Source: Cyanobacteriota bacterium (GTDB lineage: Bacteria > Cyanobacteriota > Cyanobacteriia > Thermostichales > Thermostichaceae). From it: 64,000 nt of DNA. Positions within the stretch are counted from its first letter, which is position 1. Every line of letters begins with the position of its first letter. Position numbers and translations under genes: made by a program. The notes below the pieces were generated by a model. The model searched no databases. It was not told the DNA's origin and saw only the letters and a list, made by a program, of their open reading frames with translations. The stretch covers positions 1 through 64,000 of the forward strand of contig JANRIL010000023.1 of assembly GCA_033764955.1 (NCBI GenBank), in the 5' to 3' direction. Shown piece after piece: positions 6,901 to 52,896 of this stretch.

Positions 6901-9574
6901 CTATTTGTCCAATCCGTTGAGCTGTTCTCAGATGAGCTTCACTCTGCTGCAAGATAAGCTCAGTGTGTTTGCGGTCACTGATGTCTTGGATAACAGCTAA
7001 AAAATTGGCTTGCCCGTGGGCATCAACCAACTGCGAGGTTGTAATTGTAATGGTGCGGGTGGAACCGTCGCGGTGTTGAATCTCCCATTCCTCTGCGAGG
7101 AAGTGCTGACCGCGCTGCATTTCCTCCATCCGCGTGATCGCCTGACGGCGCACTTCTGGATCGGGATAAAGGCTGTGATCCCACCCCAGGCGGTTCATAT
7201 CCTCTTGGCTATACCCCGTAATAACCTGCATTTGTGGGTTCCAGACCGTAAACCTTAGAAAGGGTGGTTCAGGTATGGGGTGACAGACACACAAACCTTC
7301 GGCCATGTTGTCTAAAATTTGCTGACGGAAGTTGTTGTCTTGCTCCATCCTTTTTTCGGCTAATTTACGCTCAGTAATATCGGTCAGCATCGCTAGGGAT
7401 CCGATAAACTGACCAACTTCATCGTATTGAGGTCTGGCGGATACTAGAACAAAGAACGTTGAGCCATCGGAGGGGCGACGAAGGGGCAGTTCGTATTGCT
7501 CTGGGATCCCTTGTTGGCGACATTTTAGGCGCTCTTGTAGGAAGGCGTGGTTTTCTTGGGGGACAAACGCAAAGACGGAGGATCCGACAATCTGCTCAGC
7601 ACTTACCCCCAACATGTTTACTAAAGCTGGGTTACAGAAGATGGTATTTGCCTGAGTATCAATCATCCAGATCCCTTCACTGGCGGTTTCCACAATTTGG
7701 CGATACCGAGCTTCACTTTCTTGCAAAGCCAATTCTGCCTGCTTGCGCTCGGTAATGTTGCGGAAAATAGCACGGGTGGCTACGGGATGTTCCTGACCGG
7801 ATGGATCAACTTCGTAGCGGCAGTTAATGCTGCCCTCCACCAGAATCGGTTGACCTGCCTTGCTAAAGAAGGTAAGTTCCAGATGTTCGAGGGTTTGTAG
7901 CTTTTTGGTGGCCAACTGAATGAGCACTTCACGGCAATGGGCATGACAATTAGGGTGCAAAACATCAAAAACCGTCAAGTTTTCTATCTCGGCGGCGGAA
8001 TAACCCAAAGTTTCTTGCCAAGCGCGATTGACATAATCAAACTTGCCTGTGTCGAGGCGGACACTCTGAATCAAGTCATTCGCATTGTCTAAAAAATCCT
8101 GTAGTTGAGCTTCGCGGTGGTGGAGTTCGCTGGTTCGGTGAGCAATCTGTTCTGTCAAGCTGGCATTGAACTGTTCTAGGGTAAGCTGGGCTTCTTTCAG
8201 ATCAGTGATATCAATAATGGTGCCACAGGAGACAATCGGGATCCCGTTCTCGGCAAACTGGGTCTGGCACTCTTCTTGTACATGCTTCACCCGCCCATCA
8301 GCTAGGACAATCCGATGAGTTATATGGTAGGGTCTCCGATGCTGTAGATGCTCAGCGTAGGCCGCAGTCACCATGGGGAGATCATCGGGATGAACGTGCT
8401 GCCAAAACAGTTGTTGAGAGGGGACAAAAGACCCTTCTTCCTCTTCAAAAATATTGAAGACTTCCCCTGACCAAAAGACGTCACCCGAGCAATGATCTAA
8501 CTCCCAGAAACCCAACTGGGCAATCTGCTGAGCCATCTTCAGGCTATATTCAGCTTTTCGTAGATTGGCCTCCACCTGATGCCGTTCGTCTAATTCCTTT
8601 TGCAGGTGCTGGTGCAAGATAGCTTGTTGCAGAGCCACGGACAGATGTGCCGCCAGCGATTGTAGCAGTTCCACTTCTTCTGGTTGCCAGTGGCGGGGAT
8701 GTTGACTCTCACAAGCACTGATTAACCCCCACAGGTGATCCCCGCAGAGGATGGGTACAAGAATCTTGGCGCGGGTTTGGAGGCGGATTAACAACTCTCG
8801 ATGACAGTCAGACATCGGGGTGGTGTAAATGTCCGGTACGACCCGTACCTTTTCTTGTCGATACTCTTCCAGATAGCTTGCTTGAAAGCAGTTATCGTTA
8901 ATCTCTTCTCCTATGAAGGACAAGGGAGAATGCGTTGATTCTGCTACTACCACCGTGTCCCAGTTTTCCGTAAACTGCCAGATACTAACGCGGTCACATC
9001 CCAAAATCTGCCGCACCCTCTCCACCGTGGTTTCTAAAATATCTTGTAACTTGAGGGAGGCACGAATTTGGGTTACCAATTGAGCCAGAAGGGTTTGCTG
9101 TTCGGCTTGTTTATGGAGGGTAGGGGAATGAAGGGCTTCTAGGAGGGTACTTTGGGTTAGCAGCCCTATCGGACGATCCTGATCATCCACTACAGGGAGA
9201 TGAAGCAGGCCATGTTCCTGGAGGAGCGTGAGGGTTGCCCATGGTTCGGTTAGATCTCCTACCCGTAGGCAGATTGGTAGAGGAGTCATCACCTGCTCAA
9301 TCAAAATCTGATCCAAGGGATCCCCATGGGCGCTCAGGCGTAGCCCATCTTGAGCTGTAAATAGACCAACTAGGCGTTCTTCTCGCAAGATGAAAACACA
9401 GGTGGAGCGTGCTTCTGTGTGAATAATGGCTAGGGGTTGCGGGGATCGGGATCGGTCTGCCGCGATGGTCATTTGGGCAAGAGCCACCTTTACCGTTGTG
9501 TCACCAGAAACAAGCAGAGGATCTGAAATGATCGCTGCTTTGAGTTGAGGATGAATCGGTTGGTGGTCACTCAT
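3974..9574 (-). CDS. Multi-sensor hybrid histidine kinase: CBS pair, DXCF cyanobacteriochrome GAF, multiple PAS, second DXCF GAF, HisKA, HATPase, REC
   Basis: CBS motifs (HLPVVDDQDRPIGLLT); GAF1 DNCF...SDCH; GAF2 DHCF...SECH; repeated PAS/PAC ends (DITERK); FLANMSHELRTPLN; GTGLGL; C-terminal REC (LMDIQMP). Confidence 0.93.
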   Translation of the reverse strand: MSDHQPIHPQLKAAIISDPLLVSGDTTVKVALAQMTIAADRSRSPQPLAIIHTEARSTCVFILREERLVGLFTAQDGLRLSAHGDPLDQILIEQVMTPLPICLRVGDLTEPWATLTLLQEHGLLHLPVVDDQDRPIGLLTQSTLLEALHSPTLHKQAEQQTLLAQLVTQIRASLKLQDILETTVERVRQILGCDRVSIWQFTENWDTVVVAESTHSPLSFIGEEINDNCFQASYLEEYRQEKVRVVPDIYTTPMSDCHRELLIRLQTRAKILVPILCGDHLWGLISACESQHPRHWQPEEVELLQSLAAHLSVALQQAILHQHLQKELDERHQVEANLRKAEYSLKMAQQIAQLGFWELDHCSGDVFWSGEVFNIFEEEEGSFVPSQQLFWQHVHPDDLPMVTAAYAEHLQHRRPYHITHRIVLADGRVKHVQEECQTQFAENGIPIVSCGTIIDITDLKEAQLTLEQFNASLTEQIAHRTSELHHREAQLQDFLDNANDLIQSVRLDTGKFDYVNRAWQETLGYSAAEIENLTVFDVLHPNCHAHCREVLIQLATKKLQTLEHLELTFFSKAGQPILVEGSINCRYEVDPSGQEHPVATRAIFRNITERKQAELALQESEARYRQIVETASEGIWMIDTQANTIFCNPALVNMLGVSAEQIVGSSVFAFVPQENHAFLQERLKCRQQGIPEQYELPLRRPSDGSTFFVLVSARPQYDEVGQFIGSLAMLTDITERKLAEKRMEQDNNFRQQILDNMAEGLCVCHPIPEPPFLRFTVWNPQMQVITGYSQEDMNRLGWDHSLYPDPEVRRQAITRMEEMQRGQHFLAEEWEIQHRDGSTRTITITTSQLVDAHGQANFLAVIQDISDRKHTELILQQSEAHLRTAQRIGQIGSWEFDLLTGQITWSEEVFRMFDYDPTQPTPSLEAFEQMLLPADRLYHQQVIHLAIEEQQPYEIEFSCYKPDGSLGYFLARGEPFTDKARRVVKLIGTILDITEQKTAEFAKQELIQELSAFKLALDRAATVAITDRDGVILYVNDRMCEVTGYSRDELIGGSNFLIESEIQSENFYQDLLITISQGDVWQGEVCNRAKSGYLYWERATIVPLLDAQNYPSKYLAIRFDITERKKAELALQSKTDALDRFFSLSVDLMLIGTADGQIVRINQQWENLLGYSIAELEGTSFSSYVHLEYVDKTFSHNLVPGHSAPSFSNRLTCRDGSYRWLEWRVVLSGDLVFAVARDISERVRQEEESQQRAEREALLREVTQRIRQSLDLQTIFDTACQEIRRVLQADRVGVFKFDPESNGDDGQFVAESVETGLPSALAIRIHDHCFGQEYAPLYRQGRYAAMDDIYKLSECHTNVLALIQVRANLVVPLICGDRLWGLLCIHQCHQVRHWYSIEIDLAQQLANQLAIAIQQANLVEQLQQELWERAQTQQQLTTSNQQLAISNEKLARATRLKDEFLANMSHELRTPLNAILGMSEGLQEGVFGSISAEQQRALETIERSGSHLLELINDILDLSKIEAGRVELDAKPTPVAPLCAASIAFVRQQALQKQIQIETTLPSDLPELLIDERRVRQVLINLLSNAIKFTPQGGRITVEIRHKWQVPLQLQGLHYRTNYRSEKDPKLNKLPLSEKINRFLYISVLDTGIGITPEDMDRLFQPFIQVDSALNRQYSGTGLGLALVKRIVEMHGGEVGLASKPGVGSCFMISLPCVAGSLSPSISLSPQIPSETDLPLLSPSAPLVLLAEDNEANISTMTSYLKAKGYSVIVAKDGQEAIDLTRSQNPNIILMDIQMPGVDGLAAMREIRRDPQYRQIPIIALTSLAMYGDQDRCMEAGATSYMSKPVKLKELIVTMEKLLLAARNGS

Positions 9575-10134
9575 GACACTGGTGTCAGGCAGGGGAATAC
9601 CTGTATATATTGAGGCTTACTTCCACATCCTGGCATTTTTCCATCATGATGTCAGAAAACTTCCCAAAACTCCCTCTGAATAAATGCTCCCTTTGCCCAA
9701 CTATGGGAATGTATCTCCCTTAATGCTTCAAAAATCTTTATCTTTTTCCCTTCATCGGCAGCGGGGAGGACGGGTCAAGATATCCTACCCTTCTTTGGCG
9801 GAGGATTGGTGGCTCATGGCGGAAATCAAAGCGCTAGGAGAGATTTGGGTATCCTATGCAAGTGGGTGCTGCACTATCGATGCCAGCCGTGGAGCAAGCC
9901 GTGATGCAAGAAGTTGAAGCGGATCCCAACTATGGTTCTTCAGCTTCTGGAAGAAGGATAGAGTTTCTCTCACTAGCCTTCTGATCCCTTGTTAAGAGTG
10001 TTACTTAATTGTTGATATAGTAAGAGTTTATTCACTAACGATATATCCGGCCTAAGAAGCTAGAAAATCGCGTTGCAATAATCTTAAATTTCCTTCGTCA
10101 CCATAATAAGTTATTCCCTACTTAGAGCTACCAA

Positions 10135-10695
10135 CTATTTTAGAAGCTGAGGGAAATGGGTTTGTAAATAGGCTCGATAACCTGTTTGTTGTAGCTCCGC
10201 TTCTTTATCGAAAACCATCTGCTGTAACTGCTGGCGATAAAGCTGCACCTGTGCCATGAGATGGGGATATTGCAAGCCTAAAATTTGGATAGCTAAAAGT
10301 CCGGCGTTTTGAGCATTGCCAATCGCTACCGTGGCCACAGGGATCCCTCTAGGCATCTGCACAATCGCATAGAGGGCATCAAGTCCCTGGAGCATTCCTC
10401 CAGGTACGGGGACGCCAATCACAGGTAAAGGGGTGAGGGCAGCCACCATTCCTGGTAAGTGGGCGGCTCCTCCCGCTCCGGCGATAATGACACGGATCCC
10501 CTCTTGGTGAGCAGTTTTGGCATAACTAACCATGGCTTCAGGCGTGCGGTGGGCGCTCAAAAAATGCACATGATGCCTGACGGCAAACTGTTCACAGATA
10601 GCAATCGCGGCGCTCATGACGGGCAAGTCAGAGTCACTGCCCATCACAATAGCGATGATGCCGGGGGAGGGATCAGGAGGAGGGGGAAGAGTCAT
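10135..10695 (-). CDS. purE: N5-carboxyaminoimidazole ribonucleotide mutase
   Basis: IVMGSDSD, SAHRTP, IAGAGGAAHLPGMVAA, IVQMPRGIPVATVAIG. Confidence 0.97.
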   Translation of the reverse strand: MTLPPPPDPSPGIIAIVMGSDSDLPVMSAAIAICEQFAVRHHVHFLSAHRTPEAMVSYAKTAHQEGIRVIIAGAGGAAHLPGMVAALTPLPVIGVPVPGGMLQGLDALYAIVQMPRGIPVATVAIGNAQNAGLLAIQILGLQYPHLMAQVQLYRQQLQQMVFDKEAELQQTGYRAYLQTHFPQLLK

Positions 10696-10788
10696 GAGTT
10701 GGGAGGGTTACCGAACAGGCATGTAGTGGGGGTCAGATGGCTGGGCTTGCGGATGGTTCCCAATCACACGAGGGATCCCGCGGCTACC

Positions 10789-11886
10789 TTAAATCATCCG
10801 TTTTACGGCGGCACGCTGCAAGCGGTCAGCGATGGCATGTCCTAGCCCATTCATAGAGGGAGAGGGTTCGCTGACGATGATATGGGCGGGGCTTTCATCC
10901 AAGGTACGCAAACTGGCAAACAGACCACGAGCGGCGGCGGGCAAGTCTTCAACTCCACTCAAGAGACTGACGGTGACGGGCTTTCGCCAAGGATCTGCAA
11001 GATCGAGCACGGCATCCCCTGGCTGGACGAACCGTAAAACACCCAGATGGGGGTAAGGATCCAGTTTCTCCCGCCATATCTGCCAATCGTTTTCGGTAAA
11101 GTGCGCCAGCGGCTTGGGCAACAGCAACAGCGGTTTTTGGGGGGCATAATGGCTGGTCAACCGACCTGGGGATCCTTGGCTGGCTTCGCTGTTGGGTAGG
11201 TGCAGAGGCTCACCCCAAACCGCTGCGATCTGCTCGCTGGCTAACCCTCCTGGGCGCAATAACCAAGGGATCCCCTGGAGATCAATGCGAATCACCGTGG
11301 ACTCCAGCCCCACCTGGCAGGATCCTCCATCTAGGATGCAAGGGATCCGTCCAGCTAACTCGGCCAAGACAGCCTGGGCTGAGGTGGGACTGATTCGTCC
11401 AAACCGATTGGCGCTGGGAGCCGCCAGAGGAGTTTGGCTAGCTTGTAAAACCGCTTGAGTAATGGGGTGTTTGGGTATCCGCAACGCCACATCCCCCAAG
11501 CCACTGGTGACCAAATCAGCGACACGGGAAGTTTTGGGGAGAACTATCGTCAATGGCCCTGGCCAAAAGCAATGGAGAAGGTGGTCAATTTTTTGTCGGG
11601 TTGATGCAGAAAAATCACTGAGGTTAACTAACTGCAAATCCTCTTCTAAATAGGTGAGAAAGGATCCCTTTTGATTGAGAGAAATATGCACAATTAAGGG
11701 ATCAAAAGTGGGGCGTTCTTTGCTGGCAAAGATCTGACTAATGGCATGAAGATTAGTGATATCTCCAGCCAATCCATAGACGGTTTCGGTGGGAATAGCA
11801 ACTAAATTTCCCTCCCTCAACAGTCGGGCAGCTTCAGCGATTCCTGTCGGAGTGGGATCCAGAATTTGAGTGGCCAACATACCCAT
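10789..11886 (-). CDS. sua5: L-threonylcarbamoyladenylate synthase, Sua5 type (YrdC + SUA5 domain)
   Basis: PTETVYGL, KERPTFDPLIVH, FWPGPLT, AAPSANRFG, GLEST, PGRLTSHYAP, AIADRLQRAA. Confidence 0.93.
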   Translation of the reverse strand: MGMLATQILDPTPTGIAEAARLLREGNLVAIPTETVYGLAGDITNLHAISQIFASKERPTFDPLIVHISLNQKGSFLTYLEEDLQLVNLSDFSASTRQKIDHLLHCFWPGPLTIVLPKTSRVADLVTSGLGDVALRIPKHPITQAVLQASQTPLAAPSANRFGRISPTSAQAVLAELAGRIPCILDGGSCQVGLESTVIRIDLQGIPWLLRPGGLASEQIAAVWGEPLHLPNSEASQGSPGRLTSHYAPQKPLLLLPKPLAHFTENDWQIWREKLDPYPHLGVLRFVQPGDAVLDLADPWRKPVTVSLLSGVEDLPAAARGLFASLRTLDESPAHIIVSEPSPSMNGLGHAIADRLQRAAVKRMI

Positions 11887-32444: not shown

Positions 32445-34193
32445 CTACACCGACTGGGTAGGATGACCGGTTTTGCGATGTAGAACGGCAGTGCGACCGT
32501 TGGTATCGATCACCTGCCCCTGTTGGGTTGTGGCATAAATCACCCAATGATCCCCACAGTCGAGGCGACTCACCACCTGACACTCCAAATAAGCCAATGC
32601 GTCCTGCAAAATAGGTGCTCCATTGCTGGCAACCCGAACCTCCAATCCAGCAAAGCGATCTTCTCCGGGCGCAAAGGTTTTGAGAAAGTGTTTACGGATC
32701 TGTTTGCCCTCTTGCAGGATGTTGATCACAAAGGGATCCCCAGTGTGGAGGAGAGATTCAATCGGCTGGTCTTTGGCAATCGCCACCGTAAAGCCGGGGG
32801 GATTAAACGTGGCTTGAGCCACCCAGGAGGTGAGCAGGGCGCTAGAAACTTCCCCCTGTTTGGCCGTGACCACACAAAGGGATCCGATCACCCGCCCCAG
32901 GGCTTGTTGAGCGGCGCTTCCGGTTTGGCTGGTTGTTTTGGCCAGCACGGGTTGGCGTTGCTTGTGGGTGCGTTTCAGTTCTTGAGCAAACTGTATGCCC
33001 GATTCTTCACACAGTTGGAGGGTGGTCTCGGTGGGCTTAAACTTGACGCGGATGGGTTCAAAGCCGAAGCGAAAACCAGCTTCCCGCAGTTTATCAGCGA
33101 GCAGATCAATCGCTTCCCCACTCCAACCAAAGGAGCCAAACACCCCCACGGTTTGTCCACGGCTGGCGTTGGAGAGGAGAATACCAAAGGCGGTCTGAAT
33201 TTGGGTGGGGACATGCCCTCCCAGGGTCGGGGATCCGATGATCACCCCATCACAGGTTTCGATGGCGGTTTTGACCTCGCTGGGTTCGGCAGACTCACAG
33301 TTGATCAGTTCTACCCCTACCCCTGCCTTGGTGATGCCCCGCCCGATAGCTTGCCCCAGGGTAGCGGTGTTGCCGTAGGCGGAGGCATAGAGGAGCGCCA
33401 CCTTGAGGCTCTGCACCCGTTGCTCTTGGCTCCACTGTTGATAGAGGTAAGTCAACTCCCGCAAGCCATCCCGCACCATCGGCCCGTGATTGGGAGCATA
33501 AAATTCCACCTGCAAGGGGGCGATCCGCTCCAGGGCAGCTTCCACCTGACGGGGTTGCGTCGCCATCAAACAGTCATAATAAAAGCGCCGATCCTCCAAA
33601 AACACCGACCAGCCCTCATCAAACACTTGATCCCCACAGACATGGCAGCCAAACCATTTATCGGTAAAGAGGATTTGCGTTTTGGGGTCGTAGGTGCAGA
33701 GCAGATCCGGCCAGCGGGGGCTAGGGGTGGGCAGGAACTTGAGGGCGTGGCCTTGTCCCAGATCGAGGGTTTCTTCTCCCCGCACAATCGAGATGGGCAG
33801 ATCATAATCGGGGAGAGCCGCTTTTAGGGCAACCGCCGCCGGATTGGAGCAGATAATTGTTACTTGATGAGTAATTTCTAGGAGGGCTTGCAGGGTCGCC
33901 ATCCGGTTGGGGTTGATGTGAGCCAGGATCAGATAGTCCAGTTGCCGCACATTCACTCGTGCCAATAGCGATTCCAGATAAATGCCCGTAAAGGTCTCAC
34001 CGGGAGGATCGATCAGGGCGGTTTTGTCTCCCTGAATCCAATAGGAATTGGCGGTGGTGCCCCGCTGCAAGCCATACTCCATCTCAAACCGGAGACGGTT
34101 CCAACTGCGGGAGCGAAAGACGGTGGTTTGTTTGGCTATAGGAAAAACCTGAACATCGCGGGGCTTGCTTGGGGTGAGAAGGGAGTTAACCAT
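32445..34193 (-). CDS. Class C flavodiiron protein (Flv1/Flv2-like, non-canonical diiron ligands)
   Basis: RGTTANSY, LIDPPG, AHINPNR, PNHGP, flavodoxin YASAYGNT, GSFGWSGEA, flavin-reductase GDHW; ATG taken at 34193. Confidence 0.9.
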   Translation of the reverse strand: MVNSLLTPSKPRDVQVFPIAKQTTVFRSRSWNRLRFEMEYGLQRGTTANSYWIQGDKTALIDPPGETFTGIYLESLLARVNVRQLDYLILAHINPNRMATLQALLEITHQVTIICSNPAAVALKAALPDYDLPISIVRGEETLDLGQGHALKFLPTPSPRWPDLLCTYDPKTQILFTDKWFGCHVCGDQVFDEGWSVFLEDRRFYYDCLMATQPRQVEAALERIAPLQVEFYAPNHGPMVRDGLRELTYLYQQWSQEQRVQSLKVALLYASAYGNTATLGQAIGRGITKAGVGVELINCESAEPSEVKTAIETCDGVIIGSPTLGGHVPTQIQTAFGILLSNASRGQTVGVFGSFGWSGEAIDLLADKLREAGFRFGFEPIRVKFKPTETTLQLCEESGIQFAQELKRTHKQRQPVLAKTTSQTGSAAQQALGRVIGSLCVVTAKQGEVSSALLTSWVAQATFNPPGFTVAIAKDQPIESLLHTGDPFVINILQEGKQIRKHFLKTFAPGEDRFAGLEVRVASNGAPILQDALAYLECQVVSRLDCGDHWVIYATTQQGQVIDTNGRTAVLHRKTGHPTQSV

Positions 34194-34297
34194 AAAAGTA
34201 GGGATCCGCTCAAACCAAGCAGATGATGAGGGTGGACTGCACACAGTCAGTATCCCGAAGGGATACCCTTGCATTCTAATCCGGCTTTGGTCACGGC

Positions 34298-36418
34298 CTA
34301 GCTGAGGGGAAGGGGCAACACCTGCACGGCACAGGCTTTTAATTCGGGCTGGTGGGAAATCGGATCGTCGATGGGATGAGTGAGGGTGTTGGCTTCCGAT
34401 TGCTCCGCCCAAAGGGATCCCCAGTGCATAGGCACAAACACAGTCCCTGGAGCAATGGCACGGGTGATCTCAGCCAGAAAGTGGGCACTGCCCCGCCGCG
34501 AACGCACTTCCACCCAGGTTTGGTTACGGATGCCCAGATGGTCAGCATCACGGGGATGAATTTCCAGAAAGGGCTGCGGGTACATCTGGCGAATTTTGGG
34601 GATGCGACCTGTGCGAGTTTGGGTATGCCAATGTCCATAGACACGACCCGTGGTTAAGACGTAGGGATAGTGGGGATCGGGGGGTTCGGCGAGACCACGG
34701 GAGTGATAGGGGACAAAATTGGCTCGCCCACTGGGGGTATGAAAGTGAAAGTCAGTGTAGAGGCGGGGCTGGGGTTGATTGAGGGATCCCGCCGATCCGT
34801 CTGGGCACGGCCATTGTAACGGGCCTTCCTGGGCGAGCCGCTTGTAGCTAATCCCTGACATATCACAGGGGCGACCACGGGTGAGCTGCACGAATTCCTG
34901 ATGGATCTCTGCTGCCTGTTGATAAGGAAATTGTTCGGCAAATCCCAGCCGTTTTCCTACTTCTGCAAAAATTTGCCAATCAGGGAGGGCTTCGCCACGG
35001 GGAGTCTGAAAGGCCTCGCAGAGGGTGACGCGCCGTTCGGAATTGGTCATCGTGCCTGTTTTTTCACTCCACTGGCAGGCGGGCAAGAGGAGGTGGGCAT
35101 AGCGAGCCGTTTCGGTGGGAAAGTAGGCGTCTTGATAAATCGTAAAGGGGGAGAGGAGCAAGGCTTTTTTCACCCGTTCCAAATCCGGCAGACTGACCAG
35201 CGGATTAGTGGCGGCAATCCAAAATAGCTGAAGGGATCCCGATTCCAGCCCTTCGATCATCTGCCAGGTGGTTCGCCCCATCTGCGGGGCAATCCGTCCC
35301 GCCGGGATCCCCCAAAACGCCTCCACTTCGCGGCGGTGTTGCGGATTGCTGACGGAACGGTAGCCGGGGAGGAGATGGCTCAGCCCGCCCGCCTCCCGTC
35401 CGCCCATCGCATTGGGTTGTCCGGTTAAGGAAAATGGCCCACACCCAGGTTTCCCAATCTGCCCCGTCAGCAGATGTAGGTTGATCAGGCTAGAAACTTT
35501 GGCGGATCCCTCCTGAGACTGGTTAAGTCCCATCGACCATAGAGAAAGAATATGTTTGGACTCTTGCCAGTAGCGGGCGGCCTGCATCAGATCGGCGATC
35601 GGGATCCCGCAATGGTCAGCGACTTTTTCGGGGGGGTAGTGGCTGAGTAGAGCCGTATAGCTAGGGAAATGCTGAGTACATTCGTCAATAAATTCGGGAT
35701 CCAGTTCTCCCCATTTCAACAAAAGATGTCCAATGCCGTTCAATAAATCAATATCGCTGCCGGGACGAATCGCTAAATGCAAATCACACCCCTCAGCGGT
35801 GGCGGTTTTGCGGGGATCCACCACGATCAACTTGAGGGGGCTGCCTAATTTGTGGCGTTTTTTGAGGCGATTAAAGAGAATGGGGTGGCATTCGGCGGTA
35901 TTGCTACCAATTAAAAAAGCACAATCAGTGATATCCAAATCGTCATAACAACAGGGGGGACCATCCGCTCCTAAAGACTGCACATATCCAGCAATCGCGG
36001 AAGACATACACAGACGTGAATTGGCATCAAAATTATTGGTTCCTAAACAACCCTTGAGCAGTTTTTGAGCCAGATAATATTCTTCACTCAAAAACTGGCC
36101 AGATCCATACATAGCGATGGCATCGGGTGTTGATTGCAGGGCACAAATTCGCTCCGTTATGTGGGCAAAAGCTTCCTCCCAACTAATTCGTTCAAACTCA
36201 TCGGTTAGAGACTGACGAAACAGAGGATACAACAACCGATCCTGATCCACCGACTCCAAAATGGTTGCTCCTTTCACACACACCATGCCGTGGCTGGAAG
36301 GATGGCGGCGATCCCCGCGAATTTTCCAACGGGATCCCTGGGCATGATGGGTTGGGATCGCTTCTAAACCACAGCCCACCCCACAATAGGGGCAAAGGGT
36401 TCTTACACTGTCTGTCAT
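34298..36418 (-). CDS. narB: Ferredoxin-nitrate reductase
   Basis: [53 protein letters not shown]. Confidence 0.96.
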
Positions 36419-45517: not shown

Positions 45518-47515
45518 TTATCTGGGTTTCTCGGTTGGTTCACACAGATAGCTGGCGATGTGTTCGAGGGTGGGGGCTACCAGGAATGGGATGGGGATGA
45601 CCGCTTGCTCTGGCAGGGTTTCGGCAATTTGTCTGAGCATCCGTTGGTGGCGCTGCTGAAGCGACTGTCCAAAACCATCGGAACTATCCAGCCAAATCCG
45701 GTTGATCACTAAATAGGGATGCGGGATCCCCAGATGATCAAGAGCCTGCAAAAGGCGAGTGGTCTCGGCTAAAACCGCCTGTTCGGGGTTGAGGATAGGA
45801 ATAAATGTGACAAAGGTGGGATCCTGTAACTGATCGCGTAACCCGCGCACCTGCTTGAGTAGTCCCCGCAGCCGTTGAGCCAACTCCGGTCGCCCCACCT
45901 GATCTCGATACTTCAACCACAATTTCAGAGCCAAGCTTACCCAGCCTTCCAAGGCTTCCGGCATTTGCAAAAACCGCAGCAGATGCCCAGTGGGAGCCGT
46001 GTCTAGCACCACCAAATCGGAGCCACCCGCCTCCTGTAACACCGTCAATAGCGCCATCACCTCATCCAAGCCGGGAGGAGGCATCTCCAACAACTGCTTC
46101 CAGGCTTGCGGATCGTATTGCACCTCCACACTGCCCGATTCCCCCGCCAAAATAGCCACGATATCGTCCAAATAGTCATGGCGAAATTGCTGCAAAATCA
46201 CCTCGGCATCCACCTCTTGCGCCCACAGGTTAGGCAGGATGGAGATGGGGATTTGGCCTAAGGGAGTTTGAAATAAATCCCCTAAGGAATGAGCCGGATC
46301 AATCGAGACCACCAACACCCGCCGCTCAGGATGTCGCCGTGCTAAACTCCAGGCCAAGGTTCCCGCCATCGTGGTCTTGCCGACTCCCCCTTTGCCCCCC
46401 GTGATCACCAGTGAAATACCTGCCGCCAGCAAATCCGGCAGACGGGATCCCTCCACATCGGGTCGTGAGGGTTCATCAGCAGGCATTTCAGTAGACAAGG
46501 AAGCAGCCGTCGAAAGGGGTTGAAGAGCCTCGCGGGTGAGGGGACGAATCTGCCCCACCAGGGCATCGAGGGCTGAGCTGCCCAGAGGTTCTTGGGTTTG
46601 AAATGGCACCAACCACAAGGGGTAATGGCACAGATCCGCAACCAACTTGTGCAGGATGGGCTGTTGTTCCTGTTGACGAGCCAACCAGACTGCCGACATG
46701 GGCTGCGGACTCTGGGGATCCCTGAGCAGCACTTGATTGACGAGGATCCCGGCTATGGGCACACGGCGCGCCTGCAACTGCTGATCAAACCGCTCGGTTT
46801 CCGCCAAACTGAGGGCTTCGGGAATCATCACCAACCAGGCGGCGGTACTAGCCGGATCTGTCAGTCTTGCCTTGCCCCCTGCCAATTCCGCTTTGAGGGT
46901 GGCTAAAAACGCATCTGCTTGGTCACTACGATAGCTACCTGTCAGGGTGCGGGAAATTTCCTGGTGTTTAGCTTGAAATAGGCTGAAAACCCCTAAAATA
47001 TTATCCAAAAAATCCGGCAGTTCCAGCAGACGTAGCGTGTGTCCAGTGGGCGCAGTATCCAAAATAATTTGATCCGCATCTCCGCTAGCCAATAGGCGGT
47101 TCACCTCCAAAATAGCCATCAATTCGTCCACCCCCGGCCAAGCCAGATCCCAGACGGGCAAGAGATCCTCCCGTTCAAACCAACTGCCTCGCTCCGTCAG
47201 TAACTCTAGAGCCTCTCCATAGGTGGCTTTGAAGCGTTTTAAGAGAGCTTCCGCATCCAAAGCACGGATGGCGAGATTGGGCAGATCCGCAGGGGAAGTC
47301 GCTTGATCGGTAATGGGGATCCCTAAAACATCCCCCAGCGAGTGAGCGGGATCGGTGGAGATCAACAAAATTTTCCGTTCAGGCTGTGATTGAGCCAGTT
47401 GACGGGTGAGGGCGCAGGTAAGAGTAGTTTTGCCCACACCTCCTTTGCCACTCAAGATCAACAATTGACGATCAGGGGCTAGCAATGACATAGATGGGTT
47501 CCAGTCTTCCGACAT
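45518..47515 (-). CDS. ArsA/Get3-family ATPase with two ATPase domains
   Basis: Two KGGVGKTT, two DPAHSL, two DTAPTGH. Confidence 0.92.
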   Translation of the reverse strand: MSEDWNPSMSLLAPDRQLLILSGKGGVGKTTLTCALTRQLAQSQPERKILLISTDPAHSLGDVLGIPITDQATSPADLPNLAIRALDAEALLKRFKATYGEALELLTERGSWFEREDLLPVWDLAWPGVDELMAILEVNRLLASGDADQIILDTAPTGHTLRLLELPDFLDNILGVFSLFQAKHQEISRTLTGSYRSDQADAFLATLKAELAGGKARLTDPASTAAWLVMIPEALSLAETERFDQQLQARRVPIAGILVNQVLLRDPQSPQPMSAVWLARQQEQQPILHKLVADLCHYPLWLVPFQTQEPLGSSALDALVGQIRPLTREALQPLSTAASLSTEMPADEPSRPDVEGSRLPDLLAAGISLVITGGKGGVGKTTMAGTLAWSLARRHPERRVLVVSIDPAHSLGDLFQTPLGQIPISILPNLWAQEVDAEVILQQFRHDYLDDIVAILAGESGSVEVQYDPQAWKQLLEMPPPGLDEVMALLTVLQEAGGSDLVVLDTAPTGHLLRFLQMPEALEGWVSLALKLWLKYRDQVGRPELAQRLRGLLKQVRGLRDQLQDPTFVTFIPILNPEQAVLAETTRLLQALDHLGIPHPYLVINRIWLDSSDGFGQSLQQRHQRMLRQIAETLPEQAVIPIPFLVAPTLEHIASYLCEPTEKPR

Positions 47516-47585: not shown

Positions 47586-48716
47586 TTAATAGTCAACTCC
47601 CCGCTTCAAATCTGCCCCCCGCTCAGCATAGTGTTTGTGACAGACCATCTCGGAGTGAACCGAGGCCAGCTCAAAATAGGGAAGCGGAGCATAGCACCGC
47701 CCTGTGATAATGATCTCTGTATCTTTAGGCTTGCGTAGCAACCCTTGCACAATCGGCTCCACTTCTAAAAGTTCCAGATCGACCGTCGGGTTGAGTTCAT
47801 CCATGATAATGGTTTTATAAAGCCCAGAAGCCATCGCCGCCCGTGCCAGTTCCCAGCCTCGCTCCGCTTCTACATAGTCAATTTCCTGCTGCTTGCCTCG
47901 CCAAACAATGGCATCGCGTCCACAGCGTTGGTGATCCACCAGATGGGGGTAACTATCTCGCAATGCCCGAATAGCCGCATCTTCCGTATAGCCGGATCCC
48001 CCTTTTAACCACTGCATAATCAAGACACGGTGAGAGAGGTCTTTGCTGATACCCCGCCCAATCGCTTGCAGGGCACGTCCTAGGGCACTTGTCGATTTTC
48101 CTTTACCTCCCCCCGTATAAATCTCAATGCCACTGTCATAACCATTGCTTTCGGGACGGCGCAGGCTTCGCATCTCGGAGTGGAGATCGGCTAACTCGAT
48201 GATGGCCGGTGGCGCGCCCCGACCTGTGATGATCACCTCCATTTCCTCTGGTTTCTGCCGGAGAGTACCCACTACCTCTTCAACGGGCAGCAAGCCCAGA
48301 TCCAGCACGGGATTGAGTTCGTCTAGCACCACCACCGAATAGAAACCGGAGGCAATCGCTCCTTTGGCCACATCCCAGCCACGGCGAGCTTCTTGCCGAT
48401 CAAATTTGGTGATGGCTTCCGGGCCAAAAAATTCTCCTCGTCCCGTCCGTAGTTGGTCGATCAGGTGAGGGAAACCCCGTTGCAGCGCCGCGATAGCGGA
48501 GTCTTCGGCATATTGACGACCTGGCCCTTTTAAGAATCGTACTAGCAAGACACGGCTGGGGGCAGCGTTTTCGATCCCCAAGCCAATCGAGCGCAAGACC
48601 ACACCCAACGCCGCCTGGGACTTGCCTTTGCCCTCGCCATCATAAACATGGATTTGTCCACGACGGCGATTTTGAGATTGGGCGGTAAGAATGCCAACTT
48701 CTGCCATAGGGAGCAT
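47586..48716 (-). CDS. cobO: Cob(I)yrinic acid a,c-diamide adenosyltransferase, cyanobacterial tandem-domain form
   Basis: YDGEGKGKS and YTGGGKGKST halves, LDELN, ITGR, GVDY end. Confidence 0.88.
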   Translation of the reverse strand: MLPMAEVGILTAQSQNRRRGQIHVYDGEGKGKSQAALGVVLRSIGLGIENAAPSRVLLVRFLKGPGRQYAEDSAIAALQRGFPHLIDQLRTGRGEFFGPEAITKFDRQEARRGWDVAKGAIASGFYSVVVLDELNPVLDLGLLPVEEVVGTLRQKPEEMEVIITGRGAPPAIIELADLHSEMRSLRRPESNGYDSGIEIYTGGGKGKSTSALGRALQAIGRGISKDLSHRVLIMQWLKGGSGYTEDAAIRALRDSYPHLVDHQRCGRDAIVWRGKQQEIDYVEAERGWELARAAMASGLYKTIIMDELNPTVDLELLEVEPIVQGLLRKPKDTEIIITGRCYAPLPYFELASVHSEMVCHKHYAERGADLKRGVDY

Positions 48717-48888
48717 AATCCTGCTATATCACAAGGAATACCACCATTACCCAGTCTGTACTAGGCAGACTGAAGCAAGGGCTGTCACCACCATCTTAGA
48801 GCTTGTCAGCCGTTGCCACTACTGACCGCCCCAAGAGTAGCCACCTACGATGCCAGGGATCCCTATGCTGGTTACAGAACATCTACTA

Positions 48889-49896
48889 CTAATGATTTTC
48901 AGTAATGCGCTTGAGGGGAAGATAAAGAACGTGATCGCTGCCACTGCCCACAGGTTGTTGGGATCCCAGGCTGACTTTTTGTTGTTCTAGCCACAAAAGC
49001 AAGGATTGATGCTCAGGATAATATTCAAAGATGTAGTTTATAAAGTCCTCAATAGTGCAAGGTTTATTGGTTCCTCCCATCCATTGATGAAAGTGATTAT
49101 GAATTTCTGAGCTTAACGTGATCAAGTTGCTTAAGCTAGCGGCAATCTTAGGATAGTAAGCTTCTGAATAGAGATGATGGACAGTAAGACTGTGACATAT
49201 CATTCTTGTTACCTTGCAAAGATTTTTATCTCGTTTCTTAGCTAATTTTTTAGCCCATTCAATTTCTTTGTGCCTTGCTTCAATCTGCTTGATAATGAGA
49301 TCAATCTGAGGGCTAATTCTCTCGGCAACGTCACGACACCATTCTTTGCGATTTGCCTGGGTAATCAGGTCTCTCATCCCTATGGCAATGTTATAAATTC
49401 CCAACCGCGAAATATAAACATTCTCAGAACCAGCAAAACGAGTGTAGTGAATATCTTGGATCATCAGATTTTTTGCTATTAAACTCTTAATGATTTTGTT
49501 GAAGTAATCGCGTCGTGTACCCAAGATAGCAATAACATCTGAAACAGACAGCCAATAATCATCCTGACGACGAATCAAGGAAGTGCTGTTACCCAAAATT
49601 TTATGATCGACAAATGCTCGTTGGGTATGCTTTTTCTTATCAACAAACCATTTTTTTATATCTTTAGGATCGGGATTAATAAAATCTGGGTGTGCCTTCA
49701 AATAAAGATAGATGGCATGGGCACCCGTTTGGGTGTATTCTCGAACCTTATTGACTACTCGATAATCCTTGCCTTTGATTAACTCCCATTTGTCATCAGG
49801 GATCCGATCAAACTCTTCCTCAATCTGCTTGAGTTGCTCTAAGCTTATTTTCAAAAAATCTGCCAATTTATTAGAGGAAACAAAAACTATTGCCAT
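48889..49896 (-). CDS. Uncharacterised protein: two antirepressor-like N-terminal modules + C-terminal HNH nuclease
   Basis: RDKNLC...LTVHHLYS...SNLITL...IHNHFH; N-terminal ELIKGKDY...YTQTGA and MIQDIHY...YISRLG modules; AT-rich. Confidence 0.7.
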   Translation of the reverse strand: MAIVFVSSNKLADFLKISLEQLKQIEEEFDRIPDDKWELIKGKDYRVVNKVREYTQTGAHAIYLYLKAHPDFINPDPKDIKKWFVDKKKHTQRAFVDHKILGNSTSLIRRQDDYWLSVSDVIAILGTRRDYFNKIIKSLIAKNLMIQDIHYTRFAGSENVYISRLGIYNIAIGMRDLITQANRKEWCRDVAERISPQIDLIIKQIEARHKEIEWAKKLAKKRDKNLCKVTRMICHSLTVHHLYSEAYYPKIAASLSNLITLSSEIHNHFHQWMGGTNKPCTIEDFINYIFEYYPEHQSLLLWLEQQKVSLGSQQPVGSGSDHVLYLPLKRITENH

Positions 49897-50513
49897 TGCT
49901 CAAATTTCTCCGTTAAACTTTTATAGTAGATATTTATTTTCTGAAAGATCTTATCGTCTCCGGTATTAGGAATATCAGGATGATAAATTTTACTCAGGTT
50001 GCGATAGGCAGTTTTAATGTCTTCATCCGTTGCTTTTTCAGGATCTAAGCCAAAAACACGCCAAGGCAAATCATACTTAAAGATATTGATGCCATTGATG
50101 CAGCCATATCCAACTTCCCCCTCTTCCTCTGGCAAAACTCCAATCAGTCGACGATAGATTTTTTTACAATCTTCGGGATCCGAAAGACTCAATTTGCCCA
50201 GGCCGCTGCTGGCGAGCTTAAAGCTTCCTGATTTCTTTAATTCTGTAGCATTAGCAACTTCAAAATGCTGATAGATAGCTTTCTGAAGTTCTTTGATGGA
50301 GAGCGGTTGGGGTGGATAAACCTGCCGCAGAATAAACTGAGAAAATGCTTCTAGAGTTGCCCGTGGGAGGTCAGAGGTTGTGACCAGCCTTTCAATTTCA
50401 GTCTGAACGGCAGCTATTACCGCGGCATGAGGAACTACCGTAGGGGTCTTGCTGGTGGATTTTGAGGCTGTGGATTTGGGCTTTGAGCTAGCAGATTTTT
50501 TGGTGGCGGGCAC
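49887..50513 (-). CDS. Protein with C-terminal J-domain
   Basis: PWRVFGL...IKTAYRNLSKIYHPD...FQKIN (HPD intact); GTG start with AGGAGGAG RBS; overlaps the HNH gene by 10 nt. Confidence 0.85.
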   Translation of the reverse strand: MPATKKSASSKPKSTASKSTSKTPTVVPHAAVIAAVQTEIERLVTTSDLPRATLEAFSQFILRQVYPPQPLSIKELQKAIYQHFEVANATELKKSGSFKLASSGLGKLSLSDPEDCKKIYRRLIGVLPEEEGEVGYGCINGINIFKYDLPWRVFGLDPEKATDEDIKTAYRNLSKIYHPDIPNTGDDKIFQKINIYYKSLTEKFEQWQ

Positions 50514-50617
50514 AACTCCTCCTGAATAAGAGATCCCAACTCAACACACATGTTTTGCCTATTGAACAAGGATAATCCAAGTTCAGAGTTGAGCCTAGCT
50601 TTTCAGATTGAATTCAA

Positions 50618-50902
50618 CTATTTCGATTCAAACTGATAGCCTAAATCCTTCAATAATCCTGGAGAACGCCACTAATGGGGTCACACACGCACAAATAACT
50701 CTAGATAAATCTTCCCAGCTACTAACTTTTGCATTTGTAGGCGAGCATTGTGTCCGATCGTTTTCAACATATCCCCTTTCTTGCCAATTAAACTCGCCTT
50801 TTGCGATTCCCGCTCGACGGTGATCGTGGCTAAAACTCCCGTCAGCGTGGGGGACTCTTCCCCCTGATTAACAGTGACCGCTACCGAGTGGGGAATCTTT
50901 TC
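50618..50902 (-). pseudogene. era: 3' fragment of era (KH domain) with two in-frame stops
   Basis: IPHSVAV...VERESQKASLIGKKGDMLKTIG...KIYLELFVRV*PH*WRSPGLLKDLGYQFESK*; no GTPase domain upstream. Confidence 0.85.
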
Positions 50903-51091
50903 AAAGCCAGAACGAAATCCGGCTGGTGCGACAGGAATGGAATAGGGGATCCCCTCACCCTCTGACCCCAGTGAGGAGAAGTTCAGTAGTTCGGTCATGG
51001 ACAGAGCTACATTTAGAAGTCCTATGCCACCTCGTGGGTAGAGGCAGGCAGGGGATCCCTACCTCGGAGGAATCAGGGCGAGTCACAGTAC

Positions 51092-52744
51092 TTAGGGGTT
51101 GGGAACCGTAATCAATAGATCAAATCCCAGACTATTTTGATCGACGGCATAGCTCGTCATGCCCATCGCTTCTAAGCTCTTGAGGGCGGTGCGGGTTTCA
51201 GCATCCAGAGTGAGGGATCCCGGTAGGGTGGTCTCCACCATTTCGATCACCCCTTGCCAATTCAACAGAAAATAGCCGTAGTTGGGCTGGGAGAGGCTGT
51301 CGTAAAGCGTCTGGAGAGGCTGGGTTTGGGGAAGAAGGGATCCTTCGCCCTGGATAAAGGCTTGGACTGCCGCTCCACTGCTAGCCAGCACGAGGTAGTT
51401 ATCAGACCAGGAACGGGTGACGAGAGGCTGACCAAAGAAGGGATCCCCCCAGAGGGTCTGATCCCCCTGCTGGGTGACCTTGAGACGGGATTGACGAGCC
51501 AAAGCATCCAGTTTATCAAGGGTGGCATTGGCCTGTTCCTTCTGGCTGGTTTCTACTACCAGCACCGCACCCATCCCCTGCAATAGGGGGCTAGCATTCT
51601 GATCGGGCAGCACCGCCAGCGCCACTTCCCCATCCATCCAACTCAAGACATCTTTATCCAGATCCATTTGGGTGGAAGACTTGAAGAGATCGCGTAATTC
51701 ATCCAAAGCTGTGCTCGCGGTCGGATCCTGTTTTTTGAGCAGTTCCGTGCGGGCTTGCCAGCTTGGACCTGGGTGAGTGGCACTGAAGACCGCTAGGGCA
51801 TTTCCCGGTAAGCGCTGGATGACCTTGCCACTAGCCATCGGGGATCCATTGATCGGCTGAAAGAGGCTATCTGCCTGAAGATCCACCTGGGTTTTGATCA
51901 GCAGTCCGGCTTCATTCCAGCGAGCCGCCGCTGCTATCCCGCCAAAAGCCTCTAACGACTTGAGGCTGTCCACATCCACTTCTGTATCCATCCCGTCCGT
52001 GAACTCAGCCATCAGATCCGGATCTGAAAGTAGAGCCGGAGTGTTGAGATAGGCAAAAGCCAGGGTTCCCTCCTGAAAAACATCCTTCACGATGGACTGA
52101 AACTGAGGACTTTCACCGAGGGATTGTCCGCGAAAGGCTTGCACTGCCCGTTCCATCACCTGCGGATCATTGGCAATCGCCACATAGTTTTTGCCAAATT
52201 CCCCCGTGATCAGGGCTTCCCCCAACTGGCCGTTGGTTTGCAGGTGCAACTTTACACCATCCTTCTGCTGTTCAGAAAACTCTGCCCCCTCTTGGCTAGC
52301 GGCTTGGCGAATTTCGGCCAAAAATTGGGAAGAGGCTTGGGCGTCTTGGGTGGTCACCGCAATCAAAAAGCCTGGGATCCCTTCCTCATCGCCAGGTTGC
52401 AGGTTGGGATCCACCACCGCCAGCGTGATCTGCTCCCCCGCCCAACTGTCCACTGCCGCTAGGTACTGATCCATTTCTTCCGCCTTTACTTCCGCCCACA
52501 TCTGGCGTTGCCATTCCTGAATCTGGGTTTGTAGGCTGGCAGGGGCAGATTCCGCGACTTTTTTAGAATCGGTAGTCATTGACAGGATCAACACACTGTT
52601 GTCAGGAACCAGCATCGTTTCAGCTAAAAGACCCGTCGGTGCTTGAGCGGAGGGAAGCTTGAGGAGTTGGCAGGAGGCGAGGAGGGCAGAGCCAGAGGTA
52701 GCCAGGAGAGAAACAGCGAGGGTGCGGGCGGATAGACGTGGCAT
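51092..52744 (-). CDS. DUF3352-like lipoprotein
   Basis: Lipobox LLASC; WAGEQITLA, DVLSWMDGEVALA and NYGYFLLNW motifs. Confidence 0.72.
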   Translation of the reverse strand: MPRLSARTLAVSLLATSGSALLASCQLLKLPSAQAPTGLLAETMLVPDNSVLILSMTTDSKKVAESAPASLQTQIQEWQRQMWAEVKAEEMDQYLAAVDSWAGEQITLAVVDPNLQPGDEEGIPGFLIAVTTQDAQASSQFLAEIRQAASQEGAEFSEQQKDGVKLHLQTNGQLGEALITGEFGKNYVAIANDPQVMERAVQAFRGQSLGESPQFQSIVKDVFQEGTLAFAYLNTPALLSDPDLMAEFTDGMDTEVDVDSLKSLEAFGGIAAAARWNEAGLLIKTQVDLQADSLFQPINGSPMASGKVIQRLPGNALAVFSATHPGPSWQARTELLKKQDPTASTALDELRDLFKSSTQMDLDKDVLSWMDGEVALAVLPDQNASPLLQGMGAVLVVETSQKEQANATLDKLDALARQSRLKVTQQGDQTLWGDPFFGQPLVTRSWSDNYLVLASSGAAVQAFIQGEGSLLPQTQPLQTLYDSLSQPNYGYFLLNWQGVIEMVETTLPGSLTLDAETRTALKSLEAMGMTSYAVDQNSLGFDLLITVPNP

Positions 52745-52896
52745 GGTGATAACCCACAAAAAAGTGACCTGCCCCTTGAGCATAGGCTAAGCTTCTTAGC
52801 TTTGTCTGTAGGGTCTGACGAACCCGAAGCACTTTCCCGGATCTTTACCCATTGGGATCCCTTTTCTGCCAGCACATGGATGCCGATTGGCTAGGG

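Follow-up and report, generated by a model that had tools for sequence, protein, structure and literature searches.

We analysed a 64,000-nt stretch of a genome assembly of a Cyanobacteriota bacterium from the family Thermostichaceae (GCA_033764955.1, contig JANRIL010000023.1, positions 1 to 64,000; hereafter the window), in which two adjacent genes on the minus strand form a candidate nuclease cassette with a J-domain protein. Gene 1 (49887..50513, minus strand) is an open reading frame (ORF) of 208 amino acids (aa) with a GTG start and encodes a putative J-domain adaptor protein, and gene 2 (48889..49896, minus strand) is an ORF of 335 aa with an ATG start, whose product is a putative DNA-binding HNH endonuclease. 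Positions 49887-49896 are common to both genes, which therefore overlap by 10 nt (sequence ATGGCAATAG). A Shine-Dalgarno-like element, AGGAGGAG, can be read directly at 50516..50523 (minus strand), 2 nt upstream of the GTG codon of gene 1, and this start is supported by the close homologues, which likewise begin with 'MP..'. The pair is flanked by a CobA/CobO gene at 47586-48716 (PF02572, E-value 5.7e-90 in Pfam) and a DUF3352 gene at 51092-52783 (E-value 1.2e-83 in Pfam), in which the G+C content (GC) is 0.53-0.57 compared with 0.35-0.44 over 48800-50399. Both the ORF coordinates and the GC profile agree with an initial interpretation of this DNA (hereafter the sequence-only reading), which had described two co-oriented genes with a 10-nt overlap and a ribosome-binding site that are AT-richer than cobO and the DUF3352 gene. 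The AT-rich island that holds the cassette, i.e., the upstream region, gene 1, and gene 2, spans approximately 48880..50650 (no strand assigned) according to the GC profile, its extent being drawn by analogy with the edges mapped in other genera. Promoter and terminator scans around the window copy gave no score above those of shuffled sequences.

The product of gene 1 consists of a variable tail rich in Lys, Ser, Thr, and Pro, a conserved middle domain (with the motifs GYGCINGINIF and LPW), and a C-terminal J-domain. The J-domain (residues 153-202; 49908..50057, minus strand) scores 40.3 bits against PF00226 (cut-off 27.8) and is short and located at the extreme C-terminus, with the Pfam match covering profile positions 5-55 of 63; a profile of the J family also matches solved J-domains (best E-value 6.6e-8). 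The sequence-only reading had proposed a C-terminal J-domain with an intact HPD motif, which is confirmed by this match and by the motif itself (residues 178-180; 49974-49982, minus strand), whose H178, P179, and D180 are invariant in 77/77 family members. J-domains with the HPD motif recruit Hsp70 and trigger its ATPase, and it is the J-domain proteins that choose the clients of Hsp70. The alignment of the 77 members has 15 invariant columns, which include HPD as well as C138 and N140 in the GYGCINGINIF motif of the middle domain, and P150 and W151 are conserved in at least 90% of these sequences. The middle domain has no match to Pfam or to any solved family, and an ESM Atlas search returned no score of 0.9 or above and no informative family for it. 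The Lys/Ser-rich N-terminus pointed out by the sequence-only reading is present in the window protein but is not a general property of the family, as some homologues have such a tail and many are without it.

For the product of gene 2, an AlphaFold2 model was built from a 98-sequence alignment (predicted local distance difference test [pLDDT] 93.9, predicted template modelling score [pTM] 0.85; an earlier attempt with 8 sequences reached a pLDDT of 65.4 and was not used). Its C-terminal part holds a divergent HNH (beta-beta-alpha-metal) domain (aa 227-281; 49054..49218, minus strand) with the residues C227, H240, H241, N257, H266, F269, H270, and C280, and in the model secondary structure a long helix of 42 residues (aa 181-222; 49231..49356, minus strand) joins this domain to the second of two N-terminal modules. 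The modelled beta-beta-alpha unit consists of strands 237-241 and 258-262 and helix 263-272. Among the 98 nucleases, C227, H240, H241, and N257 are invariant (98/98), and H266, F269, H270, G274, G275, C280, and T281 are at least 90% conserved, which bears out the HH...N...H-x2-FH residues recognized in the sequence-only reading. The loss of the CxxC zinc pairs reported there also holds, since the domain has no such pair, though a single cysteine is kept on either side (C227 and C280). HNH domains cleave nucleic acids, and two CxxC zinc-binding pairs are found in many but not all HNH subfamilies.

At the level of sequence profiles, the window protein stays below the Pfam cut-off (HNH_2, 13.2 bits vs 21) and has no NCBIfam match, HNH_2 is matched at E<=0.1 by 21 of the 98 family members, and the comparison with PHROG 119 ('HNH endonuclease') gave an E-value of 1.9e-6. 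Considering that many of the weak matches to the family profile carry PF01844 (HNH) or PF13391 (HNH_2) above the cut-offs, the C-terminal region of gene 2 appears to be a divergent but genuine HNH domain. Foldseek searches with the whole model detected nothing at E<=1e-3 in PDB or BFVD, and the local fits to HNH domains alone were informative: in PDB, the HNH protein of GVE2 (5h0m; probability 0.95, root-mean-square deviation 1.9 Å over 61 columns) and the HNH domains of Cas9 and Cap5, and in BFVD, several phage HNH proteins at a probability of 1.00. Matches of the family profile to serpin, interferon, and dynein light chain among PDB sequences were all discarded as spurious.

Two tandem modules precede the long helix in the model. 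Module 1 (aa 2-69; 49690..49893, minus strand) is predicted to contain a strand, two helices, a beta-hairpin, and a further helix in a helix-turn-helix-like arrangement, and module 2 (aa 112-177; 49366..49563, minus strand) has the same fold order and is the predicted docking site of the J protein. Profile-profile alignment of the two regions by hhalign (probability 89.8%, E-value 1.8e-6) supports the claim of the sequence-only reading that they are similar to each other. The KilA-N/ORF6N-type label given to them in that reading was not accepted, because Bro-N is detected in just 3/98 members (best E-value 1.5e-4) and structural matches are weak and conflicting: BRO-like or antirepressor proteins were found in BFVD (probability 0.1-0.9, E-value 0.015-0.11), at odds with the weak matches in PDB to winged helices of MerR/BmrR/CarH, TraN, and CRP (probability <=0.2). 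DUF2316 is matched by 26 of the 98 members, neither KilA-N nor ORF6N is among the 25 Pfam families listed of 70, and the match to a PHROG anti-repressor has an E-value of 0.018. On the basis of the model, the N-terminal modules may be described as helix-turn-helix-like.

A word-indexed protein search identified 440 homologues of gene 1 at E<=1e-3, spread over many cyanobacteria, and no model-strain name is present among the 120 matches listed. A genome scan seeded on the J-protein alignment then provided at least 80 loci, to which the locus counts given below refer and in which pairing was counted from the J side; 76 of 80 locus records are labelled Cyanobacteriota (four have no phylum label), and at least 12 named orders are represented. 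When the gene 2 profile was run over all ORFs of these loci, a homologue of gene 2 was found directly downstream of the J gene and on the same strand in 76/80, so that the neighbourhood analysis shows the pair to be conserved. The spacing between the J gene and the nuclease gene is usually 2 nt, and the 10-nt overlap is a feature of three loci, namely the window, L001, and L030. The four exceptions to pairing are L048, where the contig stops 190 bp past the J gene, L074, L078, and L056. The nuclease-less J genes at L074 (4319-4861) and L078 (152-616) have an intact HPD motif, the one at L056 (8043-8474) is cut off before HPD, and the assemblies of all three loci each hold a complete pair elsewhere. 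The nuclease is split in two pieces at five loci (L004, L006, L009, L012, and L019); some of these splits may be sequencing errors, since the L009 assembly is based on MinION reads only.

An exhaustive search with the gene 2 profile against 1.84 billion representatives returned 879 matches at E<=1e-3, 57 of which reach E<=1e-30, and among the 150 matches listed the weaker ones cover just profile positions ~200-300. In the ESM Atlas, the family is found in Cyanobacteriota only, its nearest outsiders being phage HNH proteins with DUF723, CapR, or NUMOD3. Searches of 72,556 plasmid records and 50,697 phage records by tblastn with gene 2 detected no copy. An apparent restriction of gene 2 to Thermostichus in the word-indexed search (8 clusters; 9 matches with the 98-member profile) was rejected as an artefact in view of the genome scan and the exhaustive profile search.

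The two genes co-diverge: pairwise identities of the J proteins and of the nucleases are correlated across the 63 loci with both genes intact (r = 0.785), and none of 999 Mantel permutations gave a value as high. Both genes are under purifying selection, with NG86 ratios of nonsynonymous to synonymous substitution (dN/dS) in close pairs of 0.05-0.32 for J (13/14 pairs) and 0.04-0.64 for the nuclease (12/14), dS not being computable in the rest. When the full-length nuclease and J residues 30-208 were submitted to complex prediction with custom alignments, the interaction prediction score from aligned errors (ipSAE) was 0.73 (0.73, 0.83, and 0.70 in individual runs) vs 0.00 for the best control, a mark attained by 116/157 solved complexes and 2/215 mismatched pairs, although this calibration is only rough because of the custom alignments. 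At least 84% of contacts are reproduced between runs, and the partner has a pLDDT of at least 84. The model thus predicts that J and nuclease form a specific complex via module 2. The adjacency in 76/80 loci, the co-divergence, the invariant motifs, and this predicted complex support the functional pair proposed by the sequence-only reading.

In the predicted interface, nuclease residues 112-196, which span module 2 and the beginning of the long helix (including helix residues 188 and 191-196), contact J residues 95-104, 122, 148-152, and 195-208, among which S95, A101, P150, W151, K198, and S199 are near-invariant. Within module 2, the predicted contacts at 133-153 and 160-172 fall on helices 2 and 3 and on the hairpin between them. 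The corresponding surface of a canonical winged helix-turn-helix would face DNA, and it is possible that J competes with DNA on this surface of module 2. The HPD motif (178-180) is outside the listed contacts of the predicted complex, and gating of the nuclease by a chaperone would be compatible with an interface that leaves HPD free.

The pair forms a discrete unit whose genomic context changes from locus to locus. All-against-all clustering of flanking ORFs from 81 loci placed J in 80 and the nuclease in 74, and the next flank family in 5. In 77 of the 80 assessable loci, the pair has a lower GC than the sequence on either side (mean difference -0.08; flank GC range 0.27-0.59). Within Microcystis, homology between L068 and each of L070, L071, and L072 is confined to ~1.8 kb (L068 7658-9445; 92-96% identity), and these four loci have four different left flanks, with a right flank common to L070 and L072. 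Similarly, a single stretch is shared between L054 (Phormidium) and L049 (Oscillatoria) at 7876-9595 and between the Nodosilinea loci L033 and L037 at 7951-9537, and the window and its closest relative, L001, have the pair alone in common. From these shared stretches, the edges of the unit can be placed ~130-145 bp ahead of the J start codon and 6-27 bp past the nuclease stop. We also asked whether the pair is core and syntenic in relatives, an outcome that would have told against the sequence-only reading, and found that it is not, as it occurs in unrelated contexts even within a genus. At the left cassette edge in Microcystis (L068 7670-7720; also L070, L071, and L072), a TTGACA box lies in a perfect palindrome, CCACTTGACAAAGTGG, followed by a second palindrome, CCACAGCAGTGG, and this arrangement may represent an operator overlapping a promoter. 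Inspection by eye of the upstream 170 nt of 30 loci revealed no motif common to all subfamilies, the TTGACA-palindrome being specific to Microcystis.

The cassette is sometimes bracketed by a duplicated target. The 800 bp on either side of each cassette were searched against each other for repeats in direct orientation (blastn, E<1e-6), with placements of the same length in the same loci as controls. Direct repeats were detected at 11/64 cassettes vs 9/967 control placements (Fisher p = 2.4e-9), an enrichment of ~18-fold; with the repeats reduced to ~8 independent events, p is 1.6e-6. The repeats are 36-1278 bp long and 78-100% identical. For example, 179 bp of the 3' end of a CHAT-domain gene are found at L054 at 7662-7840 and again at 9594-9767, abutting the edges mapped against L049; further repeats are found at L031 (503 bp, 86% identity) and L028 (127 bp, 87% identity), and at L060 (Merismopediaceae, 6504-10911) the pair lies between two 94%-identical copies of a 1.29-kb sigma-70 gene. 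The nuclease ORF of L060 continues in frame into the downstream sigma-70 copy, giving a 784-aa ORF that could be a real fusion or duplication or else an assembly artefact of a metagenome bin. The cassette of L031 (Nostoc parmelioides, 4062-8753) adjoins a telomere-resolvase (ResT/TelK) gene and its repeats carry an HTH_17 gene, which suggests a linear plasmid or prophage context. Passages of Furuta et al. 2010 (PMC2853133) describe long target duplication upon insertion of restriction-modification units, with repeats >30 bp and no other mobility genes, and Microcystis is among the genera concerned. Repeats >30 bp around a cassette with no mobility gene inside, as described in those passages (PMC2853133), are present at 11/64 cassettes, and the window copy is not one of them.

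In the window, a 105-aa ORF (50681-50998, minus strand) is located between the DUF3352 gene and the J gene, 168 bp upstream of gene 1. Its similarity to the GTPase Era is limited to the KH domain at the C-terminus (NCBIfam Era positions 202-275 of 291, E-value 3.9e-21; Pfam KH_2, E-value 1.7e-14), with no space upstream for a GTPase domain. No further Era-like sequence was found in the 64-kb window or in the 80 related loci. Possibly, this ORF is the remnant of a gene at the edge of the cassette, comparable to the CHAT and sigma-70 pieces at other loci.

We consider it quite possible, and tentatively favour, that the window pair is one copy of a two-gene nuclease cassette that is self-contained and horizontally mobile and in which the J subunit ties the nuclease to the DnaK of the host. 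Such a cassette of ~1.7-1.8 kb would comprise its own upstream region, the J gene, and the nuclease gene, and would be widespread in cyanobacteria. The product of gene 2 would be a DNA endonuclease in which a long helix connects an HNH active site to two helix-turn-helix-like modules in tandem that bind DNA. Gene 1 would encode its dedicated partner, which would clamp module 2 and the first part of the long helix by means of its conserved middle domain and J-domain flanks. The HPD loop would stay free to recruit and fire host DnaK (Hsp70). By covering the putative recognition helix and wing of module 2, the J subunit might serve as an antitoxin-like escort or inhibitor that keeps the nuclease off DNA, and the action or availability of DnaK would then set the state of the nuclease, with the complex being held, remodelled, or released. 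The cassette would thus resemble selfish nuclease pairs such as restriction-modification and toxin-antitoxin systems in being kept under purifying selection, occurring in divergent copies, and moving between chromosomal sites, with insertion sometimes accompanied by long target duplication. As a variant, the task of the recruited DnaK might be to fold the nuclease or to release it from its DNA product, and not to gate it. The structural core of this proposal, namely a mobile cassette encoding a complex of J-adaptor and nuclease, is much more secure than the inhibition model. That the cassette represents an undescribed class of selfish element, a chromosomal nuclease cassette with its own Hsp70 adaptor in which the DnaK cycle controls the release of a sequence-specific HNH endonuclease, is a more speculative proposal that we regard as rather doubtful. 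If it is true, maintenance of the cassette, its spread between cyanobacterial chromosomes, and possibly DNA cleavage triggered by heat or infection would all be chaperone-gated.

Several observations weigh against a mobile cassette with a DnaK-coupled nuclease. The absence of copies from the plasmid and phage records would be unusual for an addiction or defence module, and the cassette is without a recombinase and without consistent terminal inverted repeats at the mapped edges. No flanking repeat was found at 53/64 cassettes, nor around the window copy, where only short matches at chance level are present. On the nuclease tree, taxonomic labels are clustered (23 changes vs a shuffled mean of 32.9; 0/200 shuffles as low), and much of the inheritance therefore appears to be vertical, and the heavily shuffled genomes of cyanobacteria could mimic part of the signal of different contexts. 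Since pairing was counted only in loci seeded on the J protein, there could be nucleases that have no J partner. What the data show directly is the conserved pairing, the invariant motifs, the co-divergence, the discrete edges, the flanking repeats, and the AT bias; the complex and its interface are predictions, and the activity of the nuclease, its coupling to DnaK, its inhibition by J, and any role of it in movement are inferred.

Alternatively, the pair could be a vertically inherited housekeeping factor that takes part in processes such as DNA repair, recombination, or the remodelling of the nucleoid, and its apparent mobility would then reflect only the poor synteny of cyanobacterial genomes. 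The presence of the pair in at least 12 named orders, the strong purifying selection on both genes, and the clustered tree labels are expected for such a factor, and within some genera the cassette indeed occupies one site (Alkalinema L005/L008, Nodosilinea L033/L036/L041, and L021/L027). However, a housekeeping gene pair would hardly account for the GC deficit at 77/80 loci, the ~18-fold excess of repeats over controls, or the sharp boundaries and unrelated flanks within Microcystis. Up to three deeply divergent copies are present per assembly: in Prochloron, three copies with 27-31% nuclease identity fall in different starred clades of the nuclease tree. Several orders are mixed in each of at least three starred clades of this tree, with Nostocales present in two of them and Leptolyngbyales likewise, a pattern attributable to paralogy or transfer. 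The orphan or truncated J genes (L074, L078, and L056), the split nucleases (L012 and L019), and the lack of model-strain names among the gene 1 matches listed also fit poorly with a housekeeping role, which we consider improbable.

Anti-phage defence or abortive infection, an assignment proposed in the sequence-only reading, would keep the nuclease as an effector and make J the sensor, which would respond either to the state of DnaK during infection or to a phage protein acting on the chaperone system and would then free the nuclease. The AT-rich composition, variable location, divergent copies per genome, and invariant nuclease site are traits of conflict systems, and by our own reading ~22 of the 140 nearest neighbouring proteins are transposases, integrases, PIN or other toxin-antitoxin proteins, methylases, restriction-type proteins, or similar. 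A precedent for a chaperone-linked sensor is offered by host DnaJ, which is reported to mediate phage sensing by bNACHT25 (PMC12169576). Yet most of the 140 neighbours are housekeeping proteins (e.g., CP47, ArgRS, aconitase B, MetH, Ddl, NDH subunits, and PEP synthase), no consistent defence island surrounds the pair, and PADLOC-DB 2.0.0, a library of 2023 without newer systems, contains no credible match, gene 1 hitting no family and gene 2 just E1-E2 (E-value 0.034, 11 bits). Together with the lack of phage and plasmid copies, these results did not sustain the defence assignment, which we now regard as unlikely. A free-standing homing-type endonuclease, which would cut cassette-free sites and have the cassette copied in by repair, with J bringing in DnaK either for folding of the enzyme or for its removal from a tightly bound product, appears about as improbable as the housekeeping role. 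The closest look-alikes outside the family are HNH endonucleases of phages, which bind DNA by modules of the DUF723, CapR, or NUMOD3 type, the edges tightly enclose the upstream region and end just past the stop with the nuclease as the sole enzyme inside, and fragments or near-identical copies of host genes are found at the edges, the Era fragment upstream of gene 1 in the window among them. But homing targets one cognate site, whereas 92-96% identical copies of the cassette are present at several unrelated sites within Microcystis, and the cassette is not located in an intron, intein, or phage. We know of no homing endonuclease that requires a J-domain partner, and none was found in the literature searched. 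On balance, a mobile nuclease cassette with a J subunit remains our preferred reading.

Several other features of the window were also recorded. The palindrome GGGATCCC occurs at 76 sites (e.g., 48856, 48960, 50946, and 51052) vs 2.5 expected from shuffles (largest shuffle 6), corresponding to a highly iterated sequence with a density of ~1 per 840 bp, and a single copy (48960) lies within the cassette. The cobO-like gene at 47586-48716 (minus strand) encodes a 376-aa protein with two tandem CobA/CobO/BtuR domains (two matched stretches of PF02572). In a neighbouring 665-aa ORF (45518-47515, minus strand), two GKGGVGKTT P-loop motifs were observed by eye, suggesting a duplicated ArsA/Get3-like ATPase. 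Two long ORFs overlap on opposite strands, 32445-34412 (minus strand, 655 aa) and 32523-33827 (plus strand, 434 aa), one of which is presumably spurious.

We found no description of a J-domain/HNH pair in the literature searched, which consists of full texts and leaves subscription journals largely outside; in one such text, PMC11622646, DnaJ and homing endonuclease are named in unrelated contexts only. The cassette accounts for a recurrent AT-rich two-gene island that is annotated merely as 'DnaJ domain protein' and 'hypothetical protein'. A J-domain hard-wired to a DNA nuclease would be a new Hsp70 client relationship in bacteria and a new way of controlling an enzyme that may be lethal to the cell. 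Should the cassette prove to be selfish or defensive, it would add a family missed by current catalogues of defence and toxin-antitoxin systems and provide a compact case of 'insertion with long target duplication' beyond restriction-modification systems.

Each half of the pair has relatives among known proteins. Type III (class C) J-domain proteins, such as DjlA, CbpA, and Rki of phage RB43, are dedicated Hsp70 adaptors. Gene 1 is like them in that the HPD motif of its J-domain is invariant, glycine-rich and zinc-finger regions are missing, and a separate, private client-binding domain is present, but differs in that its J-domain is short and located at the extreme C-terminus, its middle domain has no relative in Pfam or among solved structures, and its predicted client is the nuclease encoded by the overlapping next gene. 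Gene 2 shares with phage HNH endonucleases (PF01844 or PF13391 combined with DUF723, CapR, or NUMOD3) and with the GVE2 HNH protein (5h0m) a beta-beta-alpha-metal core, the His-His/Asn/His residues, and separate DNA-binding modules. In contrast to the phage enzymes, it scores below the Pfam cut-off, lacks CxxC pairs, and carries its tandem modules at the N-terminus, and its family is chromosomal, confined to cyanobacteria, and nearly always located behind a J gene in the J-seeded loci.

As a unit, the cassette is similar to the mobile restriction-modification units described in passages of PMC2853133, being a small nuclease unit with a GC below that of the host and no transposase or integrase, and being flanked far more often than control placements by long direct repeats of variable length, and it also occurs in Microcystis. 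Unlike those units, it has no methyltransferase, and its partner is a J protein predicted to bind the nuclease. The pair is comparable to type II toxin-antitoxin systems in its two-gene operon with overlapping or 2-nt-spaced genes, in the smaller upstream protein predicted to bind the downstream enzyme, and in the presence of several divergent copies per genome and of orphan upstream genes. Toxin-antitoxin-chaperone (TAC) systems carry a SecB-like chaperone, and the pair resembles them in that the link to a chaperone is built into the module. It departs from both toxin-antitoxin and TAC systems in that the partner does not have a known antitoxin fold and its J-domain would borrow the DnaK of the host instead of relying on an encoded chaperone. 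Among selfish or conflict cassettes that combine a nuclease with a partner, the hard-wired Hsp70 adaptor would be the new feature.

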